From a virus (Duplodnaviria > Caudoviricetes), in IMG/VR virus record IMGVR_UViG_3300028048_000068, positions 72,628-136,627 of that record: DNA of 64,000 bases. One strand, written 5' to 3'. Every line of letters starts with the position of its first letter. The first letter of the stretch is position 1. Under the pieces are notes generated by a model. The model was not told the DNA's origin and ran no database searches. It worked only from the letters and a program-made list of their open reading frames with translations. The position numbers were made by a program, and so were the translations under genes. Positions 1,702 to 63,244 of the stretch are shown piece after piece.

Positions 1702-2937
1702 ACCCATCGTTGAGAAATATGTGCTAGGGTCGTTGCGGTCATATCCCGCGTTGCCCGACCAATCTACATTGGCATAGTTTGGATATAAGCGTTTTGCTGT
1801 TGATTCAAGAGCAAGTTTATATAAGTCATAATTTGGGGTACCTGGTTTATCATTGACACCTTTCATATATTGGAAGATTCCACAAGGGAAAATTGCCGTT
1901 TTGTGAAGTTTGCCAACTCCTTTGATTGAGCCTTCGAGAAGAGCTTTAATAATCATGCGGCCCTCTGGAAGTGTGCATGTGCCGTAATTAATTGATGTGA
2001 ATGGTAGCTGATTGCCGCTGCGCGATTGAAGGGTATTAAGGTTATGATACATTCCTTCAACTGCTTGAGCGATTTCTTTTTCTGTCATATCCATGGCATA
2101 TTTATATGCTTTAGACTTTATTTTAAAAATATCATCATCAATGGATAACTCTACCATTGTATAATTATTCCAATAAGAAAAATCTTCTTCAATATAGGTA
2201 AGTCCATCTTTAAAATGCTTATAAAAACTTTTTCTTACATATGGAACCATTGTCCAATCAAGATGTGATGCACTTACTCCACCAAATTGTTGAAGCGACT
2301 GAAGCTGGAACAGAACGGCTACTAACTGAAATGCTGTATTAACTGAATTGGCTGGTCTTACATCTGTTTGTCTTGTGTTAAATCCATTGGCAAGTAAATC
2401 ATCAAATGGAACTGTTAAACAGTTATGCATCCCCAGAATATAAGCATCAAGGTCATGAATATAAATCTCATTATTTAAATGATTATTACGAGCCATTTTT
2501 GAAACAAGATTATCAAGTGCATACTGTTTAAAAATAACCGAATCTGCCTCACCTCTGCGGCCGCCGAATGAGTATTCGTCAACATTAGCATTTTGATTCT
2601 GTACGTCGGTTGCGGCTAGCTTAACAGCGACGCGGTCCATCATTTGCGTATTCCACTCACGTTCACGATTTCTGTCTTGTCTATAACGGATATATGCCCT
2701 TGCCACATCTTTACGTTTTGTAGACATAAGTCCGTTTTCAACCAAGTCTTGAATTTCTTCTACTGTTAAAATTTTATTGTTTTCTTTTTCAATAAAAGTA
2801 GCTATATTATTGGCTTTATCTATTGCATAGGTAGAGATTTCTCCATCAATTTGTTCAAAAGCTTTTAATATAGCATTAACGATTTTGTTTTTATTAAATT
2901 CAACTATTCTTCCGTCTCTTTTTTTAATATATTGCAT
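1702..2937 (-). CDS. nrdD: Anaerobic ribonucleotide reductase, 5' exon with ATP cone
   Basis: IKKRDGRIVEFNKNKI ATP cone, IYIHDLD...HNC, LQSRSGNQLPFTSINYG, YPNY; ends STMG at the splice site. Confidence 0.95.
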
Positions 2938-2965
2938 TTATCCCTCCTAAGTAATTAAAAATATA

Positions 2966-3160
2966 TTAAGGATTGATTTTTTCGCCACAATAAATACAAA
3001 CATCATTTTCATATTTGTGTGGACAAATAGACCTAAGATATTCATTATCTTCCATATACTTTTGTACTTCCGGTTGAAGAATGAATATAGATGGGTCTAT
3101 TAATGACTGGATTTTTTGATTGTTGAAATTAATTTTATCTCTAATTTCGTCACCTGTCAT
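2966..3160 (-). CDS. Hypothetical 64-aa protein with C-terminal C-x-H...CxxC putative metal site
   Basis: ORF with GGAGGTG RBS, overlapping the upstream gene; CPHKYENDVCIYCGE. Confidence 0.7.
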   Translation of the reverse strand: MTGDEIRDKINFNNQKIQSLIDPSIFILQPEVQKYMEDNEYLRSICPHKYENDVCIYCGEKINP

Positions 3161-4268
3161 TTCTTACTTCACCTCCACGATATTCATAAAAGTCTTTGAA
3201 TAAATCATAATTATTTTCTCTTACAAAATTAAAAATCTTTTGTATAGACTCTTTCTCTAATATTGGCTCTTTTATGTGATATTGTTTAATGGCGGCATAA
3301 CAGTAGCTATATAGTGTTTCAAAAGGTTCAACCGTATTGAAGAACGCAGACCTTCTTTTAACTACTAAATGCTGTGTATATCTAGCAATTAATTTCATTA
3401 CGTTTTTCCAGTCATCATCAATGAGAGAGTTCTCATTATATATAAGTGGAAAAACGATATGATAACTTCGTAAATTTATGATGTTGCGAAAAATACGTTG
3501 AATACCACCATTGATTAATTCTTCATTAGTGTAGCAGTTGGTTAAGTCAACAGATAGTTGTTGATAAGCCGCTGAAGTTTGCATTACTTCGGTCATTTCT
3601 GGGATATATGACTCATCTATTAAACCCTGGTGAGTTAGAGAGAAATAGGTTCCCATTGGCTGAAGTTCTAACCAAGATATTAAATCTGTTTTATTGTTTA
3701 CGATGACCGGATACTTCATACCTACTCGGCGGCCAAGCGAATTGGATATCCAATCAGTTAGATTATCTTTAATTAGTACTAATGCGCCATCAACATTGTT
3801 TAAATTATAGTCATGAAATATAATTCCAAAGTTGTCGCTGTCATGCCGAAATTGTTTTTCAAAGTCTTTCCAAACAGTACTTCCATCAAGAGAAAGTCTT
3901 ACATGTTCAGCGCGGCGCATTGTACTTAAAGCATTTTTATTGTAACCGTGTGCCAATTTTGGATTTAAACTACCGTATAATGATATATCGGGTTTCATGC
4001 GCTCTATATCTAATGGAAGTGGCTTATATTTATCTCCGTCGAAGGCGCGGCCGCCATATTCGACGTTCGAATATGTAGGTAACTGCGTATATGGATTATA
4101 GAAGTCTTGACGTACAATAAAATGGTTGTATCGGTTAGGGGAATAGCTGGGCGCTAACCCAACTATTTCCCGTTTGCGTTTGTAATAAGAGGATAATTTC
4201 ATTAGTTCCAAATTATAAAAAGGAATTGGATAGTATGGAAGGTCTGCATCATATAATCCATAACTCAT
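3150..4268 (-). CDS. Degenerate homologue of a phage radical-SAM-like family (no CxxxCxxC)
   Basis: The N-terminus GLYDAD...YNLELMKLSSYYK...YGG...LPLDIERMKPDISLY resembles the family N-terminal region as I recall it; the protein has only 2 Cys. Confidence 0.5.
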   Translation of the reverse strand: MSYGLYDADLPYYPIPFYNLELMKLSSYYKRKREIVGLAPSYSPNRYNHFIVRQDFYNPYTQLPTYSNVEYGGRAFDGDKYKPLPLDIERMKPDISLYGSLNPKLAHGYNKNALSTMRRAEHVRLSLDGSTVWKDFEKQFRHDSDNFGIIFHDYNLNNVDGALVLIKDNLTDWISNSLGRRVGMKYPVIVNNKTDLISWLELQPMGTYFSLTHQGLIDESYIPEMTEVMQTSAAYQQLSVDLTNCYTNEELINGGIQRIFRNIINLRSYHIVFPLIYNENSLIDDDWKNVMKLIARYTQHLVVKRRSAFFNTVEPFETLYSYCYAAIKQYHIKEPILEKESIQKIFNFVRENNYDLFKDFYEYRGGEVRNDR

Positions 4269-5089
4269 TGTTTATCCTCCACCGTCCAATAAAAATCTTT
4301 ATAAGGTTTAGAATCATTCAAGCGGCGCTTAATTCCACATAAAATAGTATTATATTGTACTTCTGGGTGAAACTGGTGAAAATATTCAGCGGCTTCTTTA
4401 ATACTGTTAAATGTGTTTATAAGATTATGGTTTAAATCATATTGCTTAGTGATTCTATTTGAGGTTAAACGCTTACGAAAATCACTAGTATGTATATTAT
4501 TACTTTGCATATATCCTTGAATTGTTGCCTCGGTTGTCCCTAAAATGAAACCTACCTCTTTGACTTTATACCCCTCTTTTAAAAGAGGAATTATTTGGGC
4601 TTTATCATAATCATTATACCCTTTTCTAATTGGATAACTTTGCCCTTGAATGCGCCAAGCTAAGCCATAATTTATACGCCCAATTTGCTCCGCAGACAAA
4701 TTAAACTGTTCTCCAATTTGTTTATAAGTTTTATTGGTGGTTTGTAATTGATTAATAATATTTTTATAACGCTGTGGAATAGATAAGTTGGTATAGTGAG
4801 TCTCTGGTTTGTTAATATTATAGCCATAAGGAAGATAAGCATTATATAAATCTATATAATAATCTTCTTTATAAGGTAATTCATCAATTTCACATTCTTC
4901 TAATATAGAAAATTCAAACTTATCTATTCCATATTTACGAATTGCTCGATATAGAGGATAGTTTTTTGTTTTACTATCGCATCTATGTTGGTTCCATCTA
5001 TTTAAAATATGCTTGCTTTGCCCCACATAATTTTTTCCGTTTACAGTGTTGTGTATTAAATAAATACCAGTAATAATAGTAGTATACAT
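4265..5089 (-). CDS. Free-standing GIY-YIG homing endonuclease with HTH/NUMOD1 C-terminus
   Basis: GIYLIHN...YVGQS...RWNQH, GYN; start overlaps the dnaE stop (TAATG). Confidence 0.88.
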   Translation of the reverse strand: MYTTIITGIYLIHNTVNGKNYVGQSKHILNRWNQHRCDSKTKNYPLYRAIRKYGIDKFEFSILEECEIDELPYKEDYYIDLYNAYLPYGYNINKPETHYTNLSIPQRYKNIINQLQTTNKTYKQIGEQFNLSAEQIGRINYGLAWRIQGQSYPIRKGYNDYDKAQIIPLLKEGYKVKEVGFILGTTEATIQGYMQSNNIHTSDFRKRLTSNRITKQYDLNHNLINTFNSIKEAAEYFHQFHPEVQYNTILCGIKRRLNDSKPYKDFYWTVEDKQ

Positions 5090-8000
5090 TATTCCGCCTC
5101 CGCGCGCTCAGAAGTAGTTTCTATTGTTCCGTCCTCTCGTATATAAGTGATTTTTTCTACTAATGAGTATGGAGTTTTGGAGTATTTTTTAGCTAAAAAA
5201 TTCGTTTCGTCTTTTTTAATTCCAGTTACAATTATTTTATTTCCTCGGCTAAAATAACTTTTTTCAACTACTTTTTTAGTACCATCCGCGCGCCGTATAG
5301 ATATTTGCTTGTCATAATGTGTGAATGCATCACCGAATATCTTTACGGTTACTACGCTATCATTTGTTAATAAGGTAACCGTTTTTTTGTTTTTATCTCT
5401 ATCTAACACCGTTCCCGCAATGCGACAAATTTTAAACATCGGAATTCTTCTTCCATCTTTTGAAGGAAAAGTATAGTCAACTATTGGTTCATTAGGTAAT
5501 TTATTGAAACTACTTATTCCATATAAACTATTTTTAAGCTTTTTTAATTCATGGTCGTGGATATAACATGAAATCGAATCCATTTCCCACTGACTTATGT
5601 TACCTAAACAATATTTGTCCCATAAGTCTTGTCTTAATCTATTGTTTACTTTATTTAATAATTCTTCATTGTTTTTTTGAATAAATGGACGAATTATATC
5701 CATTTGCTTTTTATATATTTTATCCCAATCAGTTTGTTTAATTTGAAATATATATTGAGGTTCAGAACTAACCATTAATAAATCCATATCAAAATTATAT
5801 GAGTAAAAGCCTAATGCTATATCATCTAATCCATATGAATTACCAAATTTAAATTTTTTCAAATACTTATTAAAATTGTAAACTCTACATTGTAAATCGT
5901 ATTCTTCTGGAATCAAGCCAAAGTCAATTAACATCTTCATATTTTGAAGTGTAATACGCTTTTTCTTATCTGCAATCAAATCTATATACACATTCATTGC
6001 TTTTATACGGTCGCCGCCATATAATCCATCGAATGCGCCCGACTTAATCAAATTAATCATCTGCGGTTTATTAATTTTAATTTTACTTAAAAAATCTTCA
6101 ATATTCTTATATGGACGATTCTCCATTATTTGCTTTACAATTTCATCGCCTACTTTTGTAATACCACTTAATCCATATACGATACGATTATTATCTATAT
6201 CTGGCGAAAATGTATATTTTGATTGATTTATATCAGTTGCAACAATTGATACGCCCTCATGACTCATTTTTCCAATAGCTGTAGCAATCTTACCATAGTT
6301 TGCACTTTTTGCTGGTTTCTTTTTGGACTTAGATTCAGATATATCGGATTCATCTTCATCATCGTCATCACTGTCTTCAAATACTCCCATTGATAAGTCA
6401 TAAGTGGTTTCCCCAACATCTTCTCTATCTGTTCCTTCGTCATCATCTTCACTTTCTTTTTCTGCGCCACCGCTATCAGAGATAAGACACGCGCAATCCC
6501 ACAAAATCGTTGGATATTTATATGCAAGATTTAATTCCTGTAATCCAATTAACGAATATGCTAATGTATGTGATAGGTTAAATCCATATCCTTTTGACAT
6601 CGCGATTAATACGTTCCATACATAAGTACATAACTTTTCATCTAAACCTTTTTCTTTTATTGTTTTAAAATACTCATCGGTTAACTTATCATATTCTGCT
6701 GGATTCTTTTTCGCAATTGATTTTCTTAACTTATCCGCCCAAGTCAGATTAAATCCACCTAGCTCTGGGAGCTGAACCAATTGCATGAACTGTTCTTGTG
6801 CAATACACAAACCATATGACGTACTCAATACTGGTTCAAGAATTTCTTTAGCTTCGGCGCCGAGTCCATATTTCTTTAACTCATAATCCCAATCGCTTGG
6901 GTGTGCTTTAAAACGCGCAAGCTTATTAACTGGCATTTCTCCACCCTTTTCTGTCGCCATAAGACGAATTGCAGAGTTGAGAATTGCCAAGTCATCTACT
7001 GATGTTGGTTTCATCGCTGCAATTCCGCTTATTCCAGACTGTTTCTCCATTTGGAATAAACTCATTACCTTATGATTCCAACACATCTCCCACATTTCTT
7101 TACTATCTCTTTCGAGATTGTAAATACCAATTATTTTTTCATATGTTTCTTTTAATGTGGCTTCTCTTTCCTCATAACCATATTCACAAATTAAATCAAT
7201 ACAGTTATGAATTTTATCAAGTGCTTCTACTGAAAGAATATCGTATTTAATAAGTCCTGTATCTTCTGCATCATGAAGGTCGAACTGTGTAATAATTTCG
7301 CCTTTTGGCGCACGCATAAGTGCGGTTGACTCTGTAAACGGTTCATCAACAAAAATTACACCACCTGCGTGGATACCGCAACCATTTATAAGTCCTTCGA
7401 TACCCTGCGCGACTCTCCATACCTCTGGATAATTCTCTTCCATTTCAGTTCTAAACTGAACCGATGCGCTCATTCCGTTGTCTGGGTCACCATAGAATGT
7501 TTGTTTGAGAGTTCGAAGCTGTCCTCTATCTGCTTGGATAAATGAAGATAGATATGCAGCTATATCATTGTCAATTCCAAGACCACGACAAGCTGTTTGA
7601 ATTGCCGACTTTGACTTCTCTGTCTTCAAAGTTAATACGTTCGCAACCCTATCTTCTCCATAAATATTACGGAATGACTTCAATACTTCTGCGCGCCGGC
7701 CGCCCTCGATGTCAATATCTACGTCAAGAACCGATACACGCTCTGGATTTAAGAATCTCCAACGCTTTGTCTGACTCTTTTCTCTTAATGGATTTATCTG
7801 TGTAATACCTAACAGATATAATAATATAAATCCTACTCCTGAGCCTCGGCCGCAACCGACGAGAGTTCCTGCATCCCAACACGCATCAATTATGTTTTGA
7901 AGATTTAAAAAATATGCACTCCATCTACTTCCATTTACTTCTGATGAAATCCATGTATCTTCAAGACACGCATTAATTTCATCTAATGTACGTTTATTTT

Positions 8001-9096
8001 GAAATTCATGATATTTACTTATTTTATATATAATTGCTTCTGCTAAACGACGGTCTTCAGAATACTCTGAATTCCAAAAATTCTTTAAAAAAGGAACCCT
8101 TTCTCCCCAATATGTTATGGCCCAATTCCAATCAAACATATTATACGTTTTCCAATTTAATCTTGGAATTTTTAATGGCTTCATTAACGAATAATCTTCA
8201 CACTTATCTCTAATTTCTTCAATTGTCTGATAAGCTGATTGAAGAACTTCTTCACCCATTTCCTTTTCCATATATTCGCGCACTTCTTCATCACTCATAA
8301 GATAGGTTGTTGCATAGAAATCGTCGACCTCTCTATCTCCTTGTTGTGAGTTTAAAAATGCTTTATGAATTGGTCTATCTGCCTTTTTCAAATAATGGGC
8401 ATCATTCGTTATTATATACTTAATTCCTAACTCTGCGCCCAGCTCAACAAGTTTATGATTCACATAAATCTGGTCTTTATTAAACGATGGCTGCATTTCA
8501 AAATAGAAATCGTCTACTCCAAAAATACTCTGCATCTGTTGAATCCATCTTTTGATTAAATCCATCGAAGGCGCGCCAGTATCTCTATTACGGATAAGCT
8601 GAGTCGGAAGGCATCCTCCCAAACATGCCGTACATCCAATTACATGACCTGGATTAGCTCCAATTATATCAATTAAATCTTGATAATAAGTCGGAACTCT
8701 TCTCATTCCACGAGTTACATAACTCTTCATCCATGCACGCGAAGAGACCTCGCGGATTTGTTTATGTCCCTCAAGGTCTTTTGCAAGTAATATGAAATGA
8801 AAATATCTGTCTGTTTCTTTTTTATAATTTTGATTATTTAATCCGTTTCTTACAAGATAAATTTCGTTTCCTCTAATAAGTTTGAAATTCGGATTATTTT
8901 TCTTGATTTTATTATAATATTTTTCTGCACGAATGTGCGATGCGATTGTGTCGTGTTCGGTAATTGCTACTCCACTATGACCCAATTCGATTGCGTAATC
9001 TATAAGACCCTCGACCGTGTTTATGCTATCGCGCAAACGAAAGTTCGAAAAATCTGTGTGATTATGCAGACTTAAAGGGTATCTTAGTCTATCCAT
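5089..9096 (-). CDS. dnaE: DNA polymerase III alpha subunit (family C)
   Basis: PHP motif HNHTDFS, GRGSG, LDVDID, HAGGV, KYDIL, GYGFNLSH, HhH and OB C-terminus; 1335 aa. Confidence 0.96.
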   Translation of the reverse strand: MDRLRYPLSLHNHTDFSNFRLRDSINTVEGLIDYAIELGHSGVAITEHDTIASHIRAEKYYNKIKKNNPNFKLIRGNEIYLVRNGLNNQNYKKETDRYFHFILLAKDLEGHKQIREVSSRAWMKSYVTRGMRRVPTYYQDLIDIIGANPGHVIGCTACLGGCLPTQLIRNRDTGAPSMDLIKRWIQQMQSIFGVDDFYFEMQPSFNKDQIYVNHKLVELGAELGIKYIITNDAHYLKKADRPIHKAFLNSQQGDREVDDFYATTYLMSDEEVREYMEKEMGEEVLQSAYQTIEEIRDKCEDYSLMKPLKIPRLNWKTYNMFDWNWAITYWGERVPFLKNFWNSEYSEDRRLAEAIIYKISKYHEFQNKRTLDEINACLEDTWISSEVNGSRWSAYFLNLQNIIDACWDAGTLVGCGRGSGVGFILLYLLGITQINPLREKSQTKRWRFLNPERVSVLDVDIDIEGGRRAEVLKSFRNIYGEDRVANVLTLKTEKSKSAIQTACRGLGIDNDIAAYLSSFIQADRGQLRTLKQTFYGDPDNGMSASVQFRTEMEENYPEVWRVAQGIEGLINGCGIHAGGVIFVDEPFTESTALMRAPKGEIITQFDLHDAEDTGLIKYDILSVEALDKIHNCIDLICEYGYEEREATLKETYEKIIGIYNLERDSKEMWEMCWNHKVMSLFQMEKQSGISGIAAMKPTSVDDLAILNSAIRLMATEKGGEMPVNKLARFKAHPSDWDYELKKYGLGAEAKEILEPVLSTSYGLCIAQEQFMQLVQLPELGGFNLTWADKLRKSIAKKNPAEYDKLTDEYFKTIKEKGLDEKLCTYVWNVLIAMSKGYGFNLSHTLAYSLIGLQELNLAYKYPTILWDCACLISDSGGAEKESEDDDEGTDREDVGETTYDLSMGVFEDSDDDDEDESDISESKSKKKPAKSANYGKIATAIGKMSHEGVSIVATDINQSKYTFSPDIDNNRIVYGLSGITKVGDEIVKQIMENRPYKNIEDFLSKIKINKPQMINLIKSGAFDGLYGGDRIKAMNVYIDLIADKKKRITLQNMKMLIDFGLIPEEYDLQCRVYNFNKYLKKFKFGNSYGLDDIALGFYSYNFDMDLLMVSSEPQYIFQIKQTDWDKIYKKQMDIIRPFIQKNNEELLNKVNNRLRQDLWDKYCLGNISQWEMDSISCYIHDHELKKLKNSLYGISSFNKLPNEPIVDYTFPSKDGRRIPMFKICRIAGTVLDRDKNKKTVTLLTNDSVVTVKIFGDAFTHYDKQISIRRADGTKKVVEKSYFSRGNKIIVTGIKKDETNFLAKKYSKTPYSLVEKITYIREDGTIETTSERAEAE

Positions 9097-9131
9097 TCAC
9101 ATTTACTCCTTTTCTTTTATTTTATATTATA

Positions 9132-9160
9132 ATTATATCAGATTTTTATTAATTTGTCAA
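9132..9160 (-). promoter_or_regulatory. SigmaA/sigma70 promoter for dnaE
   Basis: TTGACA-N17-TATAAT with TG extended -10. Confidence 0.85.
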
Positions 9161-9334
9161 ATTAAAATAGTCTTTATATAGAAAATATATTTCTAAATCT
9201 TCTTTTGAAGGATAAATCCAGCCATCGTGTATTCCAATACACAAATATCGTAAATTAGTTTTATATTGAGCTGGCATTGGATAAAATCCACCAAATTCAA
9301 TTGTGGGGTATTTCTTTTTAAATAAGTTAAACAT
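9149..9334 (-). CDS. Hypothetical protein
   Basis: 61-aa ORF in a tightly packed minus-strand series. Confidence 0.55.
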   Translation of the reverse strand: MFNLFKKKYPTIEFGGFYPMPAQYKTNLRYLCIGIHDGWIYPSKEDLEIYFLYKDYFNLTN

Positions 9335-9336
9335 AA

Positions 9337-9564
9337 CTAAAATACCTTTGTCATATAATATAATTCTAAATCTTTTTTAAAATTTTCATATTCAAGTTGT
9401 AATTGTTCTATTTTATTCTTCCATTCTTTAGCTTCATCAATTCTACCTTGTCGATAGCCTTCTTCATAAACTTGACGCAGATGATAACCTTCTTCAAAAG
9501 CTTTATGTAAACCATCTGTAATATTATTTTTATCACAAGTTATTATTGCCATAGCTAACCTCAT
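9337..9564 (-). CDS. Hypothetical protein (EEGYRQGR motif, coiled coil)
   Basis: 75-aa ORF, translationally coupled to the upstream gene. Confidence 0.65.
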   Translation of the reverse strand: MRLAMAIITCDKNNITDGLHKAFEEGYHLRQVYEEGYRQGRIDEAKEWKNKIEQLQLEYENFKKDLELYYMTKVF

Positions 9565-9779
9565 TAATCAGTAATTAATTTTTCTCTTAAAGAAAAATTC
9601 ATAGTATGATATTTTTTATATGTCATATAAATATAGAAATATCCAAATAATGCTCCTACCAATGTTGAATATCCTGCATATAATGGTTGTCCTTGACAGC
9701 AAGCTATTACATAGAATTTACAATCGGTTGGTTTGGTCATATTTAACTGTTTCATAATTAATACCCTGCTTGTTGCCAT
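9564..9779 (-). CDS. Hypothetical small protein with a hydrophobic segment (start uncertain)
   Basis: ORF packed between neighbours; LVGALFGYFYIYM segment. Confidence 0.5.
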   Translation of the reverse strand: MATSRVLIMKQLNMTKPTDCKFYVIACCQGQPLYAGYSTLVGALFGYFYIYMTYKKYHTMNFSLREKLITD

Positions 9780-9958
9780 TTACATTTTGGACATTTATAA
9801 GTATATTGTGGTGGATAACTTGTTAAAACCAAACTCATATTTTTATATATAAAATCTCCACAGTTTGGACATTCTATGTCTGTTTTTATCCATGTTTGAT
9901 TGTCATTAAAAAGAAAATGCTCTCTTTGTCTTTCTGCTTGATAATCATACCAGTTCAT
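9758..9958 (-). CDS. Small zinc-ribbon protein
   Basis: CPNCG...CPKCK. Confidence 0.7.
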   Translation of the reverse strand: MNWYDYQAERQREHFLFNDNQTWIKTDIECPNCGDFIYKNMSLVLTSYPPQYTYKCPKCKWQQAGY

Positions 9959-9960
9959 AA

Positions 9961-11727
9961 TTAAAACCCCAATGTTCCATCTTCAATTTGATAATTACTT
10001 ATAAAAATTTGTGGAGTATAATTCCCCATCCACTCATTTAAATTTGCTCTACCAACGACTTCTAATTTTACATCGCCATCATACTTTTCCAATTCTTCAA
10101 TAAATTCTTTCGCATGAAACTTCATATAAGCAATCCCAAACTTGGTAATTTTAACTGTATCTTGGTTCTTGCCCATAATCTGTATATCACGCTTTGTTAT
10201 ATTAATGTCTTTAATATGAATTAAAGGCTCATTATTTTGCTGACCCCAAATATCTTCATGGCTTGCGATATCTACAATTAAATCTTCAATATCTGTATCT
10301 GCAGCGATTCTTTCGAAGTTCACTTCATACCATGACTCACCAAAATCTACATTTTCAAGTTCTTTATTTGCATATTCATGGAAAGCCGCTAAATTCTTAT
10401 CTAAAATACCTATGCCGCACGCATTATCATGGCCCGCAGTAAAGGTGAAATAACCACTATTATCCATGAAGTTCTTAAAAGATGTAAGTTCCGATTCATT
10501 TAAACCCCTGCTTGACCCTTTAATTTCGCCCTCATCATTAAGACGTGCCACTATGGTTGGCTTCTTATACTTCGCGCTCAACTTCATAGCAACAAGTCCA
10601 TTTAACTCCGGTGGAAATTGGTCATCTTCTTCCAACCTAACAAATAATACTTTATTCGAAAGTAAATCGTGTTTTGCAATTTTAATTTCAAGTTCTTCAA
10701 CTGCCTTATCGAGTATGCGATTCTGCTTCGCACGCGCATTTGTACACTCGCGCGCAGATTCAATTGCGACTTCTTCGTAGGTTCCCTTTGCACCACGCTT
10801 ATGAGATTCTACCATTGCATGACCGTCGATAAAGGCTTGAAAACAGCGTTGTTTTTCGTCTTCTGCGCCAGCTCTAATCATCGCATTGATAAGTGGAGTT
10901 ATATAGAAGGCTACGCTAATTGGATTGACTTTGCCGCCCATTGAGAAGGATTGTTTTTCGCATAATGCTTTAAAGAAATAATTTTTGATATTAGCAAGTC
11001 CTGTGTGTACGATATATCTATTCTCAAGCGATAACATCGACATCATATCACTTATCAAACCAAGTGCAGCCAGGTCGATAAATTCATCTGCATAAGAAGT
11101 GCCTTCACACCTATCTACATATCTACAAAACTGCCATGTTACACCCGCGCCGCATAAATCTTTATTTTTATAGTCATCAGACAACTGATTATTAACGATA
11201 ACAGCATGCGATGAGAATTTAGTATCTGGCTCTACTATATGGTGGTCTAGAATAAGAAATTGCGGTATTATTTCATCCTTCTCTCTTGAAGATACTATTT
11301 TTTCCATATATTCATAATCATTACTTCCTGCATCTGGAAGCACTACGTAAGAAGGATAAGTATTAGCTACTTCTTCATATGTATCTGAAAGACCATGACC
11401 TTTTGCATTATGAAGAATTGGTACTATATTTACTTCTTGATTGAATTTACGTAGATATTGTATGAATATGGCGGCCGAGGTAAATCCATCTACATCACTA
11501 TCTACGACGACTGTAATTGTTTCGTCTTTTGAAGCAACTGTCATATTTTTAAACATTGCCCATGCGCGGTCTATATTAGTGAGCCATTTTGGATTTTGCA
11601 GATAGTCATCGTTTGGTACTTCAAGGAAGTATTTAATTTCGTCTTCGCTTAACCCGCGCTCTTTAAGTAACTCAATTGTATAGTTGTTTCTTATGTCTTT
11701 ATTTACAAGTTTAGTCTTCATTCGCAT
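9961..11727 (-). CDS. recJ: RecJ-like ssDNA exonuclease (DHH/DHHA1)
   Basis: DSDVDG, LDHH, DLCGAGV, DLAALGLISDMM, GSSRG, AGHDNACG. Confidence 0.92.
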   Translation of the reverse strand: MRMKTKLVNKDIRNNYTIELLKERGLSEDEIKYFLEVPNDDYLQNPKWLTNIDRAWAMFKNMTVASKDETITVVVDSDVDGFTSAAIFIQYLRKFNQEVNIVPILHNAKGHGLSDTYEEVANTYPSYVVLPDAGSNDYEYMEKIVSSREKDEIIPQFLILDHHIVEPDTKFSSHAVIVNNQLSDDYKNKDLCGAGVTWQFCRYVDRCEGTSYADEFIDLAALGLISDMMSMLSLENRYIVHTGLANIKNYFFKALCEKQSFSMGGKVNPISVAFYITPLINAMIRAGAEDEKQRCFQAFIDGHAMVESHKRGAKGTYEEVAIESARECTNARAKQNRILDKAVEELEIKIAKHDLLSNKVLFVRLEEDDQFPPELNGLVAMKLSAKYKKPTIVARLNDEGEIKGSSRGLNESELTSFKNFMDNSGYFTFTAGHDNACGIGILDKNLAAFHEYANKELENVDFGESWYEVNFERIAADTDIEDLIVDIASHEDIWGQQNNEPLIHIKDINITKRDIQIMGKNQDTVKITKFGIAYMKFHAKEFIEELEKYDGDVKLEVVGRANLNEWMGNYTPQIFISNYQIEDGTLGF

Positions 11728-11923
11728 CTCCTACGTATTGTTTACATTTATTCATCAATAATCCAGACCACACTAGTCCTTGTATGAAACCTTGTTTAAA
11801 TTCTGGATTAGTATATGACATACTAGCTAAAATTTCTTCATATTTTTTTGACCCAATAAAGTCTAAAATGTAAGAAGCATATTCTGTTGTTTTAATATAA
11901 TTGCACATCTTCATTAAAACCAA
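11711..11923 (-). CDS. Hypothetical protein
   Basis: ORF coupled to its neighbours. Confidence 0.55.
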   Translation of the reverse strand: MVLMKMCNYIKTTEYASYILDFIGSKKYEEILASMSYTNPEFKQGFIQGLVWSGLLMNKCKQYVGDANED

Positions 11924-12120
11924 ATCTCCTTATTCATATCGTGTTCTTCCTCATCTGCATTATTAATTATATCTATTAGTACAGATAAATGTTTAAGAAT
12001 AGTTCCTGCTGAACATGCACTTGAAGAATCATCAATAGATTTTATCATATGTCCTAAATTATATTGGATAAGACTAACTATATTTATTAATTGTTCTCTT
12101 TCTTTATTTGTTATCTTCAT
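11914..12120 (-). CDS. Hypothetical protein
   Basis: 68-aa ORF with GAGG RBS. Confidence 0.6.
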   Translation of the reverse strand: MKITNKEREQLINIVSLIQYNLGHMIKSIDDSSSACSAGTILKHLSVLIDIINNADEEEHDMNKEIWF

Positions 12121-12135
12121 TTTATTACCTCATAT

Positions 12136-12441
12136 TTAAATTATTCCTATTTTACGTGCATGTCTTACGTCAAATTTTAAATGATTTTTTGTTTGTATAA
12201 TGTAATCGGCATTGTCTATTAAATAAGCCACTATTTTAAAATTATTATTTAATAATACATCGCATCCAATACGCGTATGGAAATAATTTAACAAATCATT
12301 AATAGAACCACAGCAACTTAATAAATAACTTTCTTTATAACATTCTTCTATTGTTTTTGTGCTAAGAATGGATGATTTTCCATCTCTTGTAAACCATGGA
12401 CCATTTCCTTGTTCATCTTCAAATCTATATACTTCTATCAT
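12136..12441 (-). CDS. Hypothetical phage protein (VYRxED..GxGP N-terminus)
   Basis: 101-aa ORF overlapping the primase stop (ATGA). Confidence 0.65.
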   Translation of the reverse strand: MIEVYRFEDEQGNGPWFTRDGKSSILSTKTIEECYKESYLLSCCGSINDLLNYFHTRIGCDVLLNNNFKIVAYLIDNADYIIQTKNHLKFDVRHARKIGII

Positions 12442-13490
12442 TTTACTCTTACTCTCCTTCTATAAAGCTTCCAAAAGATTTCACTTCCTTTATCCGTCGG
12501 TGAATCTTTCATATCTAACAAGTTTTCTCTATCGTATATAAATGAAAAGTCACAATAGTTCTGATATTTCTTTCCTATTTGCCACAGCTTATTAAAATAG
12601 TCTTCACTACCAAGCAACTCCTCTTTATCAAAACAAATTACGACTTCGCGCGGGTGTGCGGTTTGCATCAACAGTTTTAAAGCGTGTTTATTAAACTGAC
12701 TTCCGCATACTGCGGTCGAGCAGTTCGCAAAATCCCACCCCTCCATTTGGAGTACAGATTTTTCTGCCTCTACCAAGAAACACGTACCCGTTCGCTTTAT
12801 GTTGTCTTTAGTCCAGTTCAATCCATACAGATTCAACGACAATGGATGACTATACCATTTACCTTCAATTTGTACAGGCATATACTTACCCACATTCTCA
12901 ATTTCCCATTCGTTGAGTGCGCGCCCTCGTATTCCAACAAGTTCACCTTTTGGATTATAATGTGGTATTATAATCTTATTTTGTGGTACTGAATAACGTA
13001 TATTAAATTTTTCCATACTCGTTTTAGTAATACCATCGTTTAACCACTCCGGAGGATAAAACTTTGTAAATACATCAATTATTCCATTCGGATATGTCGG
13101 AAGCTCTATACGCTCGGGCGCAGCGTACGTATCTCGTATACGCTGATACCTCTTCGGCGCAAAGCCGTCTGGCCTACGATAATTACTACAATCAAGAATT
13201 ACCTTATATATATCTTGATACCAATCGTAATCATATCCTCTACACTCATAATAATGTTTAAGAAATTTAAAGATTGACATATTACCACACTCTGTATAGC
13301 ATACAAAGAGGTGATTATTTTCATAATAATATAATTTCATAGATGCTTCATCGGCATCTTCATTATGACAAATAGTTGGAAAGATTACATATCCTGGTTT
13401 TTCAATATAATTATCTGCACCAAGTGTTTCCATTAATTGAATTACTTTTTGTGTATCTAATTGCTCAACTATACCTTTATAATCAATCAA
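12438..13490 (-). CDS. DNA primase (Zn finger plus TOPRIM)
   Basis: TICHN...CYTEC Zn finger, IIIPHY...GIRGR, VEAEKS, CFDKE; adjacent to the helicase. Confidence 0.85.
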   Translation of the reverse strand: MIDYKGIVEQLDTQKVIQLMETLGADNYIEKPGYVIFPTICHNEDADEASMKLYYYENNHLFVCYTECGNMSIFKFLKHYYECRGYDYDWYQDIYKVILDCSNYRRPDGFAPKRYQRIRDTYAAPERIELPTYPNGIIDVFTKFYPPEWLNDGITKTSMEKFNIRYSVPQNKIIIPHYNPKGELVGIRGRALNEWEIENVGKYMPVQIEGKWYSHPLSLNLYGLNWTKDNIKRTGTCFLVEAEKSVLQMEGWDFANCSTAVCGSQFNKHALKLLMQTAHPREVVICFDKEELLGSEDYFNKLWQIGKKYQNYCDFSFIYDRENLLDMKDSPTDKGSEIFWKLYRRRVRVK

Positions 13491-15054
13491 TTACTTCACC
13501 TTGATTTAACCTTTCTACTATTACCTTAAAATGTTCATCTTCAGAATCTTCCCAACTTTTAATATTATAATCAGTTCTTGTATAGAAGTCTTCAACTGGG
13601 TCCATTCGTGAATCTGTAATAAATAAATCTCTTTTCTTTAAAGTTCCCAAATTCATATCAGACCAAATTCTTACCTGCGTCCATTCACCACTTCTGACTT
13701 TAAAAATATCAGTTACTAAGTTCGGTTTATTCTCTGGATGATTTTCATACAGCGGCGCGAGAACCTCTAATTCTTCCTTTGTTGGTCTTGCCATAATCGC
13801 ACCATTATCAGCTTTATTAATTGTACTGCGGCCGCCCGCTAATGAACCTTCATTTCTTATATCTTTATTGTCATCACCTTTTGCATTAAGCTGGGTTGAC
13901 GTAAACATAGCCACATCCAACTCAACAGCTAAATCTTTTAGCGCCGTTGCAAACATCAACAATACCTCATCGTTTCTTAACGCAAAACCTTTAAATTCAT
14001 TTAACAATGATGGTCCAATAAATATATAGTCATAAAATACATAACCTATATCATATACAATACAATTTTCTCTCACAATTGTTTTAACTGACTCAATTGT
14101 TGGATTCGGCATTTTAACAAGAATTAAATTATTATATTTTTCCATCAGTGCAATTGCTTGTGTTATTACTCCACGCTCTCTATCAGAAAAATCTGCATAT
14201 TTAAATCTTGTTGCATTTATATCTGTTAAGTAAGCCAAAATCATTGTTCTGACTTCTTTAAATCTTTGCTCTGTTACAATAAATAAAACCTTTTCACAAT
14301 TTCCAACCTGTTCCCATTCACAAGTCGTACTATTATATCTAATCGGATAAGCCAAATAACACGCATCAGCTACCGCATTTCTTGTCTTACCTACACCAGA
14401 TGCGGCCGACCTAATTGTTAAAGTTCCTTTCTTTGCTCCATCAATAACTTGGTTAAAAATTTCTCCCTGTATCGGCATACCAATTTCATACGCCGCGCCA
14501 AGTTCATCGACTAATGTGTTCATTCCTTGAGCTGCAGATTCAACTTCTATTTCATCAGTTGTTTCATATTTGGCTTCAACACCTAATAATTTTTTTCTAA
14601 CTGCATCAGTTATCAGTTTCGGACTTAACATATTAAAAGCCTGGTTAATTTCTTCGGCTTTTGGATTTAATAAATCTTCGCAATAAAATTCGCTTGTATC
14701 AAAACCCTGCTTTTTTAAGTCCTTAAGTAAATTAAACATCTTAAAACGATTATAATAGAAGTCAAAATTATCAACTTCTGATAACTCTATTATATCTTGC
14801 AGATATTCAATTCCATTTTTGTCTTTAAATAATTTTGCCGATACTTGGTCTGGTTCTATAAAATTTTCTATATCTATAGGTTGTATTTTTGTTGCTCCGT
14901 TTCTATACAACCCATTAATTGCCATAAAAATTGACCGCTCGAATCTTGAAGGAAAATCAGTTAGAATGAATGAATATTTATCTATTTCACTCAATAACTG
15001 CGGTTTCTTCATCAAACAGCCGAGTATCTGTTGAGTATCTCGTTTATCTATCAT
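13483..15054 (-). CDS. dnaB: DnaB-like replicative helicase
   Basis: Walker A AASGVGKT, FYDYI, STQLN, KVRSG. Confidence 0.88.
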   Translation of the reverse strand: MIDKRDTQQILGCLMKKPQLLSEIDKYSFILTDFPSRFERSIFMAINGLYRNGATKIQPIDIENFIEPDQVSAKLFKDKNGIEYLQDIIELSEVDNFDFYYNRFKMFNLLKDLKKQGFDTSEFYCEDLLNPKAEEINQAFNMLSPKLITDAVRKKLLGVEAKYETTDEIEVESAAQGMNTLVDELGAAYEIGMPIQGEIFNQVIDGAKKGTLTIRSAASGVGKTRNAVADACYLAYPIRYNSTTCEWEQVGNCEKVLFIVTEQRFKEVRTMILAYLTDINATRFKYADFSDRERGVITQAIALMEKYNNLILVKMPNPTIESVKTIVRENCIVYDIGYVFYDYIFIGPSLLNEFKGFALRNDEVLLMFATALKDLAVELDVAMFTSTQLNAKGDDNKDIRNEGSLAGGRSTINKADNGAIMARPTKEELEVLAPLYENHPENKPNLVTDIFKVRSGEWTQVRIWSDMNLGTLKKRDLFITDSRMDPVEDFYTRTDYNIKSWEDSEDEHFKVIVERLNQGEVID

Positions 15055-15227
15055 TTTCTAACTTTACCCTCTTTATAAAATTCTATATTAAACCACAGCC
15101 ACATAAATTGACATGAATATGTAATACCACCATTTTTGAGTTGACTAATTTCAATGGTCGGAAGAAGATAAATAGATTTATAATAGGTTTTCCAACTAAT
15201 ACCACGTCTTCTATTACGAAAAATCAT
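15051..15227 (-). CDS. Hypothetical 58-aa protein
   Basis: Likely ATG at 15227, just after the upstream stop; overlaps the dnaB start. Confidence 0.5.
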   Translation of the reverse strand: MIFRNRRRGISWKTYYKSIYLLPTIEISQLKNGGITYSCQFMWLWFNIEFYKEGKVRK

Positions 15228-15228
15228 A

Positions 15229-15744
15229 TTATTCCTCGTCCTCCAAATCATCCAACACACTAAAATCAACCTGATGTTTCGTTTTAGGTTTTTTAGTTAC
15301 ACTAACTTTAGTTCTTTCTGCAGCTGCGCGCATCTGACGTTCAATCTCTGCGATTGTTCCAGCAGACTGACGTTCTCGCGCGGCCCAGTACGCACAAGCA
15401 TCACTGTATATAAAAGGAACTATACCAATTCCGCCATGTCCTTTTTCCCAATCACCGTGCTTTATCTCATAAAAATATTTCAATGCAAATAAGATGCCCT
15501 TATTGGTCATCTTCTCTTTTAAAAACTTTTTACGCTGTGCTTCACACACCCAATAATCATACGCAGCTTTGAGGTCGCGCGCGATAAAGTCATAAATTAA
15601 ATCTACATAATCTTCATCATTGTCGGGTTGTGCTTTCTTCCAATTCTTATAACACTGCCTATGGTAATAGTAATTACGCGACGGCATAATCCAATCATCT
15701 TTTTCTTTGTCTATTTCAATATTACAAATCCTACATTTTGCCAT
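15229..15744 (-). CDS. Zn-finger protein upstream of the helicase (possible loader or adaptor)
   Basis: CRIC...HRQC and an acidic tail; first gene of the helicase-primase-recJ operon. The function is inferred from position. Confidence 0.7.
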   Translation of the reverse strand: MAKCRICNIEIDKEKDDWIMPSRNYYYHRQCYKNWKKAQPDNDEDYVDLIYDFIARDLKAAYDYWVCEAQRKKFLKEKMTNKGILFALKYFYEIKHGDWEKGHGGIGIVPFIYSDACAYWAARERQSAGTIAEIERQMRAAAERTKVSVTKKPKTKHQVDFSVLDDLEDEE

Positions 15745-15770
15745 ATCAAAACTCCTTTCTTCTTTATTAT

Positions 15771-15799
15771 ATTATAACACAAAAATGAAAATAAGTCAA
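15771..15799 (-). promoter_or_regulatory. SigmaA promoter
   Basis: TTGACT-N17-TATAAT with TG extension. Confidence 0.8.
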
Positions 15800-15803
15800 A
15801 TTT

Positions 15804-15830
15804 AAAAAGAGTAGGCTTAACCTACTCTTT
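15804..15830 (-). terminator. Intrinsic terminator
   Basis: AAAGAGTAGG/CCTACTCTTT stem with a U tract on the minus strand. Confidence 0.8.
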
Positions 15831-15835
15831 CTAAT

Positions 15836-16804: not shown

Positions 16805-16819
16805 TGAAGCCCACCTCCA

Positions 16820-18360: not shown

Positions 18361-18385
18361 ATGCCACCTCTTAAGAAATAATAAT

Positions 18386-18406
18386 GGAGGGTTTATTCAA
18401 CCCTCC
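18386..18406 (-). terminator. Stem-loop after the wHTH gene (weak terminator or processing site)
   Basis: GGAGGGTT/AACCCTCC; poor U tract. Confidence 0.45.
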
Positions 18407-18413
18407 TATTTAA

Positions 18414-18665: not shown

Positions 18666-18741
18666 AATTTTAAAATCTCCTTGTTTAAATAAATTAATAA
18701 ATGTGTTTTTCTCTGAAAGTTTCTCTCAACTTTCTATAAAT

Positions 18742-18770
18742 ATTATACTAAATTTTTGAATTAAACTCAA
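18742..18770 (-). promoter_or_regulatory. SigmaA promoter
   Basis: TTGAGT-N17-TATAAT. Confidence 0.7.
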
Positions 18771-18786
18771 ATTTTGATTTCTCTAC

Positions 18787-41959: not shown

Positions 41960-41969
41960 GAGGAATAAA

Positions 41970-43397: not shown

Positions 43398-43409
43398 AAG
43401 GAGAAAAGT

Positions 43410-43803: not shown

Positions 43804-43804
43804 T

Positions 43805-44962: not shown

Positions 44963-44970
44963 GAGGTAAT

Positions 44971-49525: not shown

Positions 49526-49554
49526 AAAACGGGTACTATATGTACCCGTTTTTT
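49526..49554 (+). terminator. Intrinsic terminator
   Basis: AAAACGGGTAC/GTACCCGTTTTTT. Confidence 0.85.
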
Positions 49555-49564
49555 GTATACGAAA

Positions 49565-49647
49565 TACGTTGAGAGCGGCCGCTCAATTTCTTGTATAAGT
49601 CAGTTCAACTTGCTCATAAAATAGGTTGACCGCGCGCCCTCAACGTA
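49565..49647. repeat. Intergenic imperfect inverted-repeat element, copy 1
   Basis: TACGTTGAGAGCGGCCGCTCAA ... TTGACCGCGCGCCCTCAACGTA; a related copy is at 63160-63244. Confidence 0.75.
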
Positions 49648-49666
49648 CAACTTCTACGTTCAAAAT

Positions 49667-49695
49667 TTGACTTTGTGTACCTTTTGTTATATACT
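49667..49695 (+). promoter_or_regulatory. SigmaA promoter
   Basis: TTGACT-N17-TATACT. Confidence 0.7.
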
Positions 49696-59998: not shown

Positions 59999-61571
59999 GA
60001 CAATTTATAAACAAGCCGATTCTCGTTGGGGTAGTAAGCCATATCCTGTTAAAAAGTCGTCTTTTGCGGGTAATGGATGCGGTTGTGTTGCTTGCGTTCA
60101 TGTTATTATGGAACAAGAGCAATATAAAAACTATACTCCAGAATCAATTCGTCCATGGATGGTTAAGCAAGGTTTTGCAGTAACCAATCATGGTACTACA
60201 TGGAGTGGTATTCCAGCTACTTTAAAGCATTATGGATATAATAATGTAGTCCATATTGGTATTAAAGACCCAATGAGTAAAGCATGGACTGAATTAAATA
60301 AAGGTAATAGAATTGGTGTCATTTTATTTAAAAGTGGAAGAGGTCCGAATGGAACAGTTTGGACAGCTAGTGGTCATTATGTAGCATTTACAGACTATAA
60401 GGTACAAAATGGTAAACACTATTTCTATACAAAGGATAGTGGTGGAAGAAATCATGATGGTTGGTATACTTATGAGAACTCAATGAGGGGTACAGTATAT
60501 CAAATGTGGATTGTTGAGGCTCCAAAAGCAGCAGCTACGCCTACAACTACGCCTACAAATACGAATACTGCGGCCGAGCCAAAGAAAGATGCTTTAACGG
60601 TTGATGGAAAGTTTGGTCCAAAGTCAATTAAGGCACTTCAAAAAGTTCTTGGCACAACCCAGGATGGAGAAATCAGCGGCCAACTTACAAAGCTGAAAAA
60701 GTATCATGGTGGATTCTCAAGCGGAATTGCCTATGGAAGTGGTGGTAGTAGTGTAGTTAGAGCCCTTCAAAAATATCTTGGCTTAAGTGGTCCAGATGGA
60801 CAGCTTGGTCCAAACACAATAAAGGCTTTACAAAAATATCTTGGAATGAGTGGTCCAGATGGATATTGGGGACCGAATACCTCAAAAGCTGTACAAAGAT
60901 GGCTTAATTCCAAACTTGACGGAAGCTCCTCTTCGTCCACTCCCTCGGTAGCACCGGCGCAGAGTACGTCGGTTAAACTCAAAGGCATGGACATCAGCGA
61001 ATTTCAGAAAAAAATTAGTCAAGCAAATTTTGAAAAAGCTAAAGAAGCAGGTATTGAATTTGTTATATTACGTGTAGGCTATACTGGTAAGGACTCGAAG
61101 AAACCGACAATTGATGCAGTATTCGAAAACAACTATGCTAATGCTATTGCCGCAGGATTACCAGTAGGTATATATTATTATTCACTTGCTACTTCTGACG
61201 CTAAAGCAAAAGAAGAAGCTAATTTCTGTATTGCTCATTTAAAAGGTAAGACAATTACTTATCCAGTTTACATTGATATGGAAGATAAGAACTATCAAGC
61301 TAAAAAATCTAAATCAACTCTTGCATCAGTATGTAATACGTTCTGTAATACGATTGCCGCGGCCGGTTATAAACCTGGTGTATATGCAAGCTTAAGTTGG
61401 TTTAACAACAAAATTGGTTCCATTAGCGCGCCACATAGTAAGTGGGTAGCACAGTATAATGAAACTTGTGATTACAAGGGCGCATATGATATGTGGCAAT
61501 ATAGTTCGAGTGAGTCCGTGCCAGGTATCGCAAGTAGAACCGACGTAAACTGGTGTTATAAAAAATTTTAG
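59991..61571 (+). CDS. Bifunctional endolysin: C39-like peptidase, PG-binding repeats and GH25 muramidase
   Basis: YKQAD.RW...GCG...GHY...KDS; DG..GP.T.KALQ repeats; GMDISEFQ...VYIDMED...WVAQY...WQYSS. Confidence 0.88.
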   Translation: MNKTIYKQADSRWGSKPYPVKKSSFAGNGCGCVACVHVIMEQEQYKNYTPESIRPWMVKQGFAVTNHGTTWSGIPATLKHYGYNNVVHIGIKDPMSKAWTELNKGNRIGVILFKSGRGPNGTVWTASGHYVAFTDYKVQNGKHYFYTKDSGGRNHDGWYTYENSMRGTVYQMWIVEAPKAAATPTTTPTNTNTAAEPKKDALTVDGKFGPKSIKALQKVLGTTQDGEISGQLTKLKKYHGGFSSGIAYGSGGSSVVRALQKYLGLSGPDGQLGPNTIKALQKYLGMSGPDGYWGPNTSKAVQRWLNSKLDGSSSSSTPSVAPAQSTSVKLKGMDISEFQKKISQANFEKAKEAGIEFVILRVGYTGKDSKKPTIDAVFENNYANAIAAGLPVGIYYYSLATSDAKAKEEANFCIAHLKGKTITYPVYIDMEDKNYQAKKSKSTLASVCNTFCNTIAAAGYKPGVYASLSWFNNKIGSISAPHSKWVAQYNETCDYKGAYDMWQYSSSESVPGIASRTDVNWCYKKF

Positions 61572-62856: not shown

Positions 62857-62887
62857 AAAAACCACTACGTTTCCGTAGTGGTTTTTT
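62857..62887. terminator. Bidirectional terminator between convergent arms
   Basis: AAAAACCACTACG/CGTAGTGGTTTTTT. Confidence 0.88.
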
Positions 62888-62888
62888 A

Positions 62889-63134
62889 TTATTCATCTCC
62901 TATAACGAACCGATTATTAAAACTTTCAAGAAAATCATTCATTACCCACAGTCCTTTTGGCAATCCACCACTGGTACATTCCTCATTTAAATAATCAGTT
63001 AGCGTATTATAACAAGGCCAGCACAAAACAAAATCTCCATCGGGTTCATTCTTTTTAAATGCTTGAATAGAATATGGTTTTTCTCCCTCAACAACTTGTC
63101 CACACCTATCACAACAAAAAAATTTAACTATCAT
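62889..63134 (-). CDS. Small Zn-binding hypothetical protein
   Basis: CDRCG...LCWPC; AAGGAG RBS. Confidence 0.7.
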   Translation of the reverse strand: MIVKFFCCDRCGQVVEGEKPYSIQAFKKNEPDGDFVLCWPCYNTLTDYLNEECTSGGLPKGLWVMNDFLESFNNRFVIGDE

Positions 63135-63159
63135 TTACATTCTCCTTTTGTCGAAGCTA

Positions 63160-63244
63160 TACGTTGAGGCGCGGCCGGTCGTCCTTGTGCGTCCTTTATC
63201 TGTGGCCCTTGCACAGACATAGGCGACCGCGCGCCGACTACGTA
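63160..63244. repeat. Intergenic imperfect inverted-repeat element, copy 2
   Basis: TACGTTGAGGCGCGGCCGGTCG ... CGACCGCGCGCCGACTACGTA. Confidence 0.7.

Follow-up and report, generated by a model that had tools for sequence, protein, structure and literature searches.

In cyanobacteria, HIP1 (highly iterated palindrome 1; GCGATCGC) and alternate highly iterated palindromes are each the one defined palindrome of their genome; they are conserved at orthologous positions, are periodic at 10 to 90 kb, and are matched by orphan methyltransferases (PMC4390886; PMC5861425). Here, we examined a 64,000-nucleotide stretch of phage DNA (the window; positions 72628 to 136627 of the 136,627-bp IMG/VR record IMGVR_UViG_3300028048_000068, whose whole genome we call G000). 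In this DNA, with a G+C content of 36.0% (36.5% in the whole genome), tracts made only of G and C are scattered over positions 1 to 64000, about 2 in every kb, and occupy both gene strands, every frame, and the spacers. A preliminary description, which had put the G+C content at about 33%, took the G/C palindromes GCGGCCGC, CGGCCG, and GCGCGC as the iterated unit, compared them with HIP1, which is linked to methyltransferases, and inferred a genome-wide self mark or a protein-loading site. The tracts do behave much like HIP1: G/C-rich short words are many-fold over-represented, occur in genes in every frame as well as in spacers, and are maintained at the DNA level. On the phage side, in contrast, any G/C run of about 7 bp or more qualifies whether or not it is a palindrome, individual positions turn over, gap lengths are exponential, and no phage methyltransferase was found. 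HIP1 is the nearest analogue in behavior, while three of its four defining features (a single palindrome, periodicity, and a cognate methyltransferase) are absent here.

Phages normally purge short palindromes; the clade of AT-rich gut and rumen phages described here does the opposite, spending rare codons on G/C-only tracts. The DNA uptake sequences and uptake signal sequences of Neisseria and Haemophilus are specific 9- to 12-mers with a known uptake receptor in competent bacteria. They share with the tracts a frequency of about one per kb, both orientations, all frames, and a density that is kept while sites turn over, a pattern that fits molecular drive or bulk recognition; the phage element differs in being degenerate and defined by composition. 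Chi is a single strand-specific word whose Firmicute cores contain GCGG, and the likeness lies in the over-representation of G/C-rich short words in a phage. The Chi words of Bacillus, Lactococcus, and Staphylococcus were not notably enriched in the phage genome, and Chi-like words were ruled out by the lack of orientation bias (GCGGCCG, 33 on the top versus 36 on the bottom strand; 28 sense versus 23 antisense; no switch across genome quarters). Known GC-biased gene conversion acts regionally and does not require a run of about 7 bp alongside. The tracts resemble its outcome in a weak genome-wide bias of silent sites toward G/C that does not depend on position, but the phage effect is nil outside run contexts. 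Restriction-site avoidance in phages (PMC6286503) explains holes in the tract vocabulary (GATC here, GCGC in the related genome G126, and CCGG in the related genome G125), but it removes words and cannot create a positive excess of G/C runs. Our literature searches found no published description of the G/C-run phenomenon. New here is the finding that the unit is set by a threshold of about 7 bp in run length. This unit survives a full change of vocabulary, is lacking in unrelated AT-rich phages and in the bacteria sampled, and shows dynamics like those of a fixation bias.

G/C-only tracts are enriched at the DNA level

Exact counting in the window gave 8 copies of GCGGCCGC (the first at 2557 to 2564, the others starting at 4047, 13828, 26651, 27235, 35321, 49321, and 49575), 28 of CGGCCG, and 33 of GCGCGC, in agreement with the positions and by-eye totals (at least 8, about 25 to 30, and about 30) reported earlier. 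The zero-order expectation is approximately 2.2 per palindromic hexamer, above the 1 to 2 copies previously stated, and by our arithmetic approximately 0.07 per octamer, as the earlier figure of far fewer than one implied. Across the whole genome, GCGGCCGC occurs 16 times versus 2 for the reversed control word, and its 13 genic copies encode AAA (7), GGR (4), or xRPx (2). Inside genes the words are built from rare GC-ending Ala, Arg, Gly, and Pro codons, as had been noted for the first three. Runs of G/C only were likewise far more numerous than the zero-order expectation (126 of at least 7 bp, 68 of at least 8 bp, and 24 of at least 10 bp, against 31.9, 11.5, and 1.5). All three long runs singled out before were present: the longest tract of the window (GCGCGCCGGCCGCCC, 15 bp, 7691 to 7705) within the DnaE-type polymerase gene, a 12-bp tract (GGCGCGGCCGCG, 35318 to 35329) within an open reading frame of 1836 amino acids (30587 to 36097) among tail-region genes, and an 11-bp tract (GCCGCGGCCGG, 61356 to 61366) within the endolysin gene.

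The preliminary description had named loss of the enrichment under amino acid- and codon-preserving shuffles as the result that would count against it; the enrichment was not lost (z of 10 to 14, window and whole genome taken together). In window genes, within-gene synonymous shuffles that kept protein and codon usage gave 0.4 GCGGCCGC (7 observed; z = 11), 3.4 CGGCCG (24 observed; z = 12), 4.2 GCGCGC (31 observed; z = 14), and 41.7 runs of at least 7 bp (116 observed; z = 13), and none of 300 shuffles reached the observed word and run counts; across the run-length classes, z was 11 to 13. Over the whole genome, the excess remained under third-base shuffles that preserved dinucleotides (z of 7 to 12) or XY-N-n1n2 pentamers (z of 4 to 9). 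These three levels of shuffling rule out a codon-usage, rare-codon, or amino acid artifact. When all 4096 hexamers were ranked by z, the top eleven were G/C-only or GCGC-containing words, and GCGC and CGCG were the two most over-represented tetramers. Words were placed in all three frames, in both orientations, and in spacers, where runs of at least 7 bp were approximately 2.5-fold in excess (29 versus 11.7; z = 6; within-segment dinucleotide shuffles). A/T runs of at least 12 bp were not enriched (z = 1.4), which rules out general compositional segregation. Clustering of Gly, Ala, Arg, and Pro residues was also rejected as the source, given that pairs of these residues were not enriched (z = −1.2) and triples were only slightly commoner than in control phages (ratio of 1.09 to 1.4 versus 0.72 to 0.85); the triple ratio hints that the tract bias leaks into protein sequence. 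The signal is therefore real, genome-wide, and seated in the DNA rather than in protein or codon choice, opposite to the usual avoidance of palindromes by phages, as the preliminary description had held.

A cause at the level of RNA or translation, with the runs acting as rare-codon clusters or as mRNA structures that tune translation or mRNA stability, is scarcely probable. The runs do use rare codons, one intergenic family forms a hairpin (see below), and a G/C run is still a G/C run whichever strand is transcribed, which makes orientation symmetry uninformative on this point. Against such a cause, a similar excess was found in spacers, all frames were used, and codon families with A/T flanks showed no next-codon effect, indicating that the cue is the nucleotide run and not codon rarity. 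Adjacent runs were no more complementary to each other than random pairs, and spacing was exponential, which also rules out hairpin pairs as a general cause of the tracts.

The enriched unit is an unbroken G/C run

Enrichment was not confined to palindromes. The nonpalindromic words GCGGCC, GGCGCG, CCGCGC, and CGGCGC were 3.2 to 4.7 times enriched, equal to CGGCCG, GCGCGC, and CGCGCG, while the palindromes GGCGCC, CCGCGG, and GCCGGC were enriched only about 2 times and GGGCCC and CCCGGG were absent from the window. Within G/C runs, palindromic 4-, 6-, and 8-mers matched a Markov chain on the G/C alphabet (z of 0.5 to 1.6), that is, they did not exceed step composition, which rules out palindromy as the driver. 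Together with the nonpalindromic spellings of sister lineages (below), these results do not bear out the earlier view of G/C palindromes as the iterated unit. One exception to simple step composition was seen: 8-mers with a GCGGCC core exceeded the prediction of an order-3 run model 3 to 5 times. Of 54 CGGCCG sites, 53 carried a G at −1 or a C at +1.

The dependence on run length was cooperative. At four-fold degenerate sites, the probability of finding G or C, P(G/C), rose from 0.21 without G/C neighbors to 0.73 where both sides had at least four; immediate neighbors alone had almost no effect. When sites were ordered by the run length (L) that a G or C in that place would yield, P(G/C) was 0.21 to 0.27 at L of 5 or less, reached 0.35 at L = 6 and then 0.53 at L = 7, with a plateau of 0.5 to 0.6 thereafter. 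The distribution of run lengths followed zero order up to 5 bp; beyond that its tail was geometric, and runs were extended with a probability of about 0.6, where 0.37 would be expected. The enriched element is defined by composition, namely about 7 or more unbroken G/C base pairs in any permitted order, and GCGGCCGC, CGGCCG, and GCGCGC are merely the commonest allowed spellings in the G000 lineage. Synonymous sites supply most of the tract letters, and spacers contribute as well.

Related phages keep the run and change its spelling

We collected related IMG/VR metagenome contigs through the topoisomerase gene (79) and through DnaE (80). In nearly all of them, G/C runs of at least 8 bp exceeded expectation, from several-fold up to about 14-fold. 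At all 70 of the 70 DnaE loci that spanned 12 kb or more, with protein identity as low as 46%, P(G/C) was 0.31 to 0.61 at sites flanked by two G/C on each side (SS-N-SS) versus 0.14 to 0.38 elsewhere. The complete relative G124 (135 kb) mirrored G000, including 16 NotI sites, and the threshold and plateau were present in G000, G124, G125, G126, and 32 distant relatives. The rule spans a deep clade of uncultured gut and rumen phages that share a module of DnaE, topoisomerase II, RecJ, and Sak4.

Spelling differed between lineages. In G125 (72 kb), GCGC and CCGG were depleted (CCGG, 12 versus 46 expected) and runs were spelled GCCCGC/GCGGGC (56 copies), CGCCCG, and CCGCCC; in G126 (42 kb), GCGC was absent (0 versus 28 expected) and runs were spelled GCCGCC/GGCGGC (30 copies), CCGCCG, and CGCCGC. 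Both genomes nevertheless kept the threshold and the excess of runs of at least 7 bp (z of 5.8 and 7.0, respectively). Two further relatives, L022 and L023, used GGCC-type words, and GCGGC and GGCGG were enriched in all four lineages examined. Since the run excess is kept while the vocabulary differs, the conserved property is the run.

The holes in the tract vocabulary correspond to classic restriction words of 4 bp (GCGC, CGCG, and CCGG, with GATC outside tracts), and the tract spelling looks like what restriction avoidance leaves available. Outside runs, GATC was depleted approximately 10-fold (21 versus 151 expected in window genes; 31 versus 304 in genome coding DNA). CTAG (0.63), AGGA/TCCT (0.77), and CAGG/CCTG (0.76) were depleted to a lesser degree, and GACC/GGTC was enriched (1.29). 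The tracts are not a by-product of avoiding restriction words that contain A or T, since such neighbors were only 6 to 16% depleted.

One variable block of the window (41294 to 45636, plus strand), which encodes a protein with Listeria-Bacteroides repeats (Pfam) and two others, is a natural negative control. It has no homolog in G124 and is horizontally acquired. It contains none of GCGGCCGC, CGGCCG, and GCGCGC, as the preliminary description had reported for this GATC-rich region, and only one G/C run of at least 7 bp (0.23 per kb versus 2.10 per kb elsewhere), with P(G/C) in tract contexts merely 0.25 to 0.27. It also holds 11 of the 21 GATC sites (2.53 per kb versus 0.17 per kb elsewhere). 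Because the block lacks both features, tracts and GATC depletion accrue with residence time in the lineage. Outside the block, the run-context odds ratio was roughly uniform across long genes (1.4 to 3, by our arithmetic).

These comparisons bear on the HIP1-like interpretation, in which GCGGCCGC, CGGCCG, and GCGCGC would be marks tied to a methyltransferase, perhaps through short-patch repair that restores the methylated word. The rank of GCGC and CGCG as the top two tetramers, the surplus of GCGGCC-core 8-mers, and the flanking preference at CGGCCG sites speak for it. Set against these, nonpalindromes were equally enriched and palindromes as a class were not, and sister lineages kept the run excess without any GCGC. 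No C5, N4/N6, or Dam-type methyltransferase was found in the phage genome (PF00145, PF01555, and PF02086; none at E ≤ 1), including the C5 enzyme that the preliminary description had thought worth seeking elsewhere in the genome, nor were Vsr (PF03852) or ThyA-family genes. A Vsr-type deamination footprint was not seen either, transition neighbors such as GTGC being only mildly depleted (GTGC/GCAC ratio of 0.94; ACGC/GCGT, 0.90). The phage encodes a dUTPase, which argues against uracil-DNA. Gaps between runs fit an exponential, that is, random spacing without periodicity, in a 137-kb genome that is too small for a proper test of a 10- to 90-kb period. With no methyltransferase gene, random spacing, and positional turnover, we consider the HIP1-like interpretation very improbable.

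The tracts are absent from control phages and sampled bacteria

Five phages served as controls, with 50 kb taken from each of T4, Listeria phage A511, and Staphylococcus phage K and 60 kb from each of SPbetaL8 and vipetofem. In none of these did P(G/C) rise with run length; it was flat or falling, and in SPbeta it fell at L of 6 to 7. The results for T4, A511, and K rule out a generic property of AT-rich phages, and those for SPbetaL8 and vipetofem, whose DnaE proteins are the nearest homologs of the one studied here (36% identity for SPbeta-like phages and 31% for Enterococcus phage vipetofem), rule out a DnaE-type polymerase alone as sufficient.

For bacteria, we used NotI sites as a proxy. 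The phage carries 117 NotI sites per Mb. Across 121 bacterial genomes from the phylum of one candidate host metagenome-assembled genome (MAG), NotI and the reversed control word were about equally frequent, and those genomes with few control-word sites (presumably AT-rich; GC content not given) had at most about ten NotI sites. A 1-Mb MAG with a 71%-identical endolysin had none. Endolysin matches were rejected as a route to the host, since they led only to MAG contigs of conflicting taxonomy. One such contig, L087 (CAMYVW010000006.1, binned as 'Tenericutes'), has 30.7% G+C and carries a full-length, 71%-identical endolysin homolog; its GATC frequency is normal and its G/C runs are not in excess. 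The contig may belong to another phage, or the gene may lie on the host side and share the lysis module. Searches with two window genes as queries (megablast and tblastn) found no match among cultured phages.

Substitution dynamics resemble a fixation bias

Individual tracts turn over between relatives. At orthologous four-fold sites with conserved SS-N-SS flanks, P(G/C) in relatives was also about 0.45 to 0.5. We then considered rates of change between A/T (W) and G/C (S). In run contexts of the six closest relatives, a two-state model, which was fitted to a few hundred sites and ignores site heterogeneity (biasing the total rate downward), gave a W→S rate 1.54-fold that of other sites (confidence interval, 1.17 to 1.97), an S→W rate of 0.49-fold (0.37 to 0.64), and a total of 0.74-fold. 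When contexts were matched on run length, W→S in runs of at least 7 bp was 1.4- to 1.5-fold and S→W 0.20- to 0.24-fold (loss 4 to 5 times slower), values that are conditioned on unchanged flanks. By our arithmetic, a weak fixation bias moving the equilibrium from 0.235 to 0.5 predicts W→S, S→W, and total rates of 1.70, 0.52, and 0.80; protection alone predicts 1.0, 0.31, and 0.47, and drive alone 3.25, 1.0, and 1.53. Transitions and transversions were both affected in tract contexts, and the transition share of W/S differences showed no consistent shift (0.92 versus 0.82, 0.69 versus 0.69, and 0.58 versus 0.69), which argues against deamination shielding or T:G-specific repair. Overall, the pattern of substitution resembles a bias in fixation more than it resembles simple shielding from mutation.

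These rates speak to context-dependent mutation, whereby the replicase or proofreading of the clade, or shielding of stable duplex from damage, would make G/C in runs mutate less and A/T more, with the tracts as a neutral equilibrium. Such a process fits a trait that is clade-wide, roughly uniform in odds ratio across genes, present in spacers, without strand bias, and accrued with residence time, as the tract-poor acquired block indicates. Yet stacking and next-nucleotide effects act on immediate neighbors, and P(G/C) did not change with run length up to 5 letters; if proofreading were weaker at stable termini, both rates should increase, and W→S went up while S→W went down. The transition share lacked the consistent drop expected of deamination shielding, and SPbetaL8 and vipetofem have DnaE-type polymerases without the trait. 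We regard context-dependent mutation as an improbable but live alternative.

A rival based on nonadaptive drive is GC-biased gene conversion or biased mismatch repair: recombination of coinfecting relatives (Sak4-like, RecJ-like, and RuvC-like proteins) would form heteroduplexes in which W/S mismatches within G/C-rich DNA are resolved to G/C. This would account for a two-sided rate shift without a transition-specific signature, for random spacing and turnover of positions, and for tracts in coding and noncoding DNA alike; the recombination genes are present in the phage, and the trait follows the phage module and not the sampled bacteria. The absence of any effect up to 5-letter runs, the step at 6 to 7, and the plateau, on the other hand, are not predicted by known conversion bias, and cooperativity that spans about 7 bp is, to our knowledge, without precedent. 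The genes searched included none for a base-specific glycosylase, Vsr, or a MutS-type protein. On balance, gene conversion is an unlikely but live explanation of the tracts.

The reading we favor, with a probability of roughly 45%, is weak selection for GC-only tracts that are read through a property of the duplex, with their spelling filtered by restriction avoidance. We infer weak selection because the length threshold, the plateau, and the two-sided, base-blind shift are hard to obtain from nearest-neighbor mutation or known conversion bias. Scaled selection of about 1 to 2 units per site would favor GC-only "clamps," which may be read through, for example, resistance to opening or groove geometry. 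The reader may be the DNA-handling machinery of the phage itself, or the tracts may serve as a bulk mark separating phage DNA from AT-rich host DNA, and restriction avoidance would select which spellings survive. A narrower form of this reading, possible though on the doubtful side, is that any G/C run of about 7 bp or more is recognized through duplex physics by a component of the DnaE/topoisomerase II/RecJ/Sak4 module. The runs, about 2 in every kb, would then be scattered self marks or clamps that are missing from AT-rich hosts, and their spelling would evolve freely under restriction pressure.

Several points weigh against selection. Tract positions show very little conservation: once divergence is saturated, a site in G000 only weakly predicts the state of that site in a relative (Mantel-Haenszel odds ratio of 2.2 versus 1.2 at other sites). 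Exponential gaps without spacing constraint suit a neutral drive equally well as a bulk-property function. The small number of sites, the simple model, and the conditioning on flanks noted above limit the rate estimates, and AT-rich phages without tracts exist and manage without them. The bacterial sample covers one phylum through the NotI proxy only, and a host-side cause is possible.

If a reader exists, the tracts would represent a new type of genome mark that is independent of sequence and dependent on composition. If there is none, they would show with unusual clarity how a cooperative drive that depends on context can shape synonymous sites, and such a drive, if true, would matter for codon-usage models, k-mer-based host prediction, and tests of selection in phage genomes. 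In practical terms, sites for the rare cutters NotI, EagI, and BssHII are unexpectedly frequent in such phage genomes.

Hairpin elements and gene content

The exception among the G/C runs is an intergenic hairpin element of about 85 nucleotides, present in five copies, with TACGT-rich ends and a stem that contains two G/C runs 47 to 48 nucleotides apart. Compensatory changes were found in 11 of 31 predicted pairs. Two copies lie on the plus strand of the window, one at 49545 to 49675 with stem tracts GCGGCCGC and CCGCGCGCCC and the second at 63135 to 63270 with GGCGCGGCCGG and CCGCGCGCCG; the other three are outside it (L090:7445-7575, L090:9605-9740, and L091:6290-6425). Candidate roles for the predicted structure include a terminator, a small RNA, or a protein site.

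The phage genome encodes a DnaE-type polymerase, primase, DnaB-like helicase, RecJ-like exonuclease, Sak4-like annealase, RuvC-like resolvase, and ligase, together with a type II topoisomerase, NrdD/NrdG, the dUTPase, many GIY-YIG/HNH homing endonuclease genes, and 25 tRNA genes. The replication-recombination module on the minus strand of the window (5089 to 23130) accompanies the trait, and its proteins are candidate readers or causes of the tracts. The module comprises, all on that strand, the DnaE-type Pol III alpha subunit (5089 to 9096), the RecJ-like exonuclease (9961 to 11727), the primase (12438 to 13490), the DnaB-like helicase (13483 to 15054), the Sak4-like annealase (15836 to 16804), and the topoisomerase II subunits (18787 to 23130).

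At least 7 GIY-YIG genes and 1 HNH gene for homing endonucleases lie among the replication genes (window positions 996 to 1565, 4265 to 5089, 17731 to 18360, 23123 to 24001, and 27324 to 28418; L090:3543-4316; L093:9795-10499 and 11874-12554). Two genes look split beside a homing endonuclease gene, namely NrdD at 1687 to 2937, which covers only model positions 2 to 265 of 562, and a helicase at 26232 to 27308. Outside the window, a single open reading frame of 3340 amino acids (genome positions 56886 to 66908; L092/L093) showed a run effect weaker than that of the replication genes (P(G/C) of 0.28 versus 0.17). A full-length ROOL RNA (Rfam RF03087; 285 bits; model positions 1 to 574 of 574) lies at genome positions 5585 to 6183 (L090:5585-6183), also outside the window and upstream of the 25-gene tRNA region.

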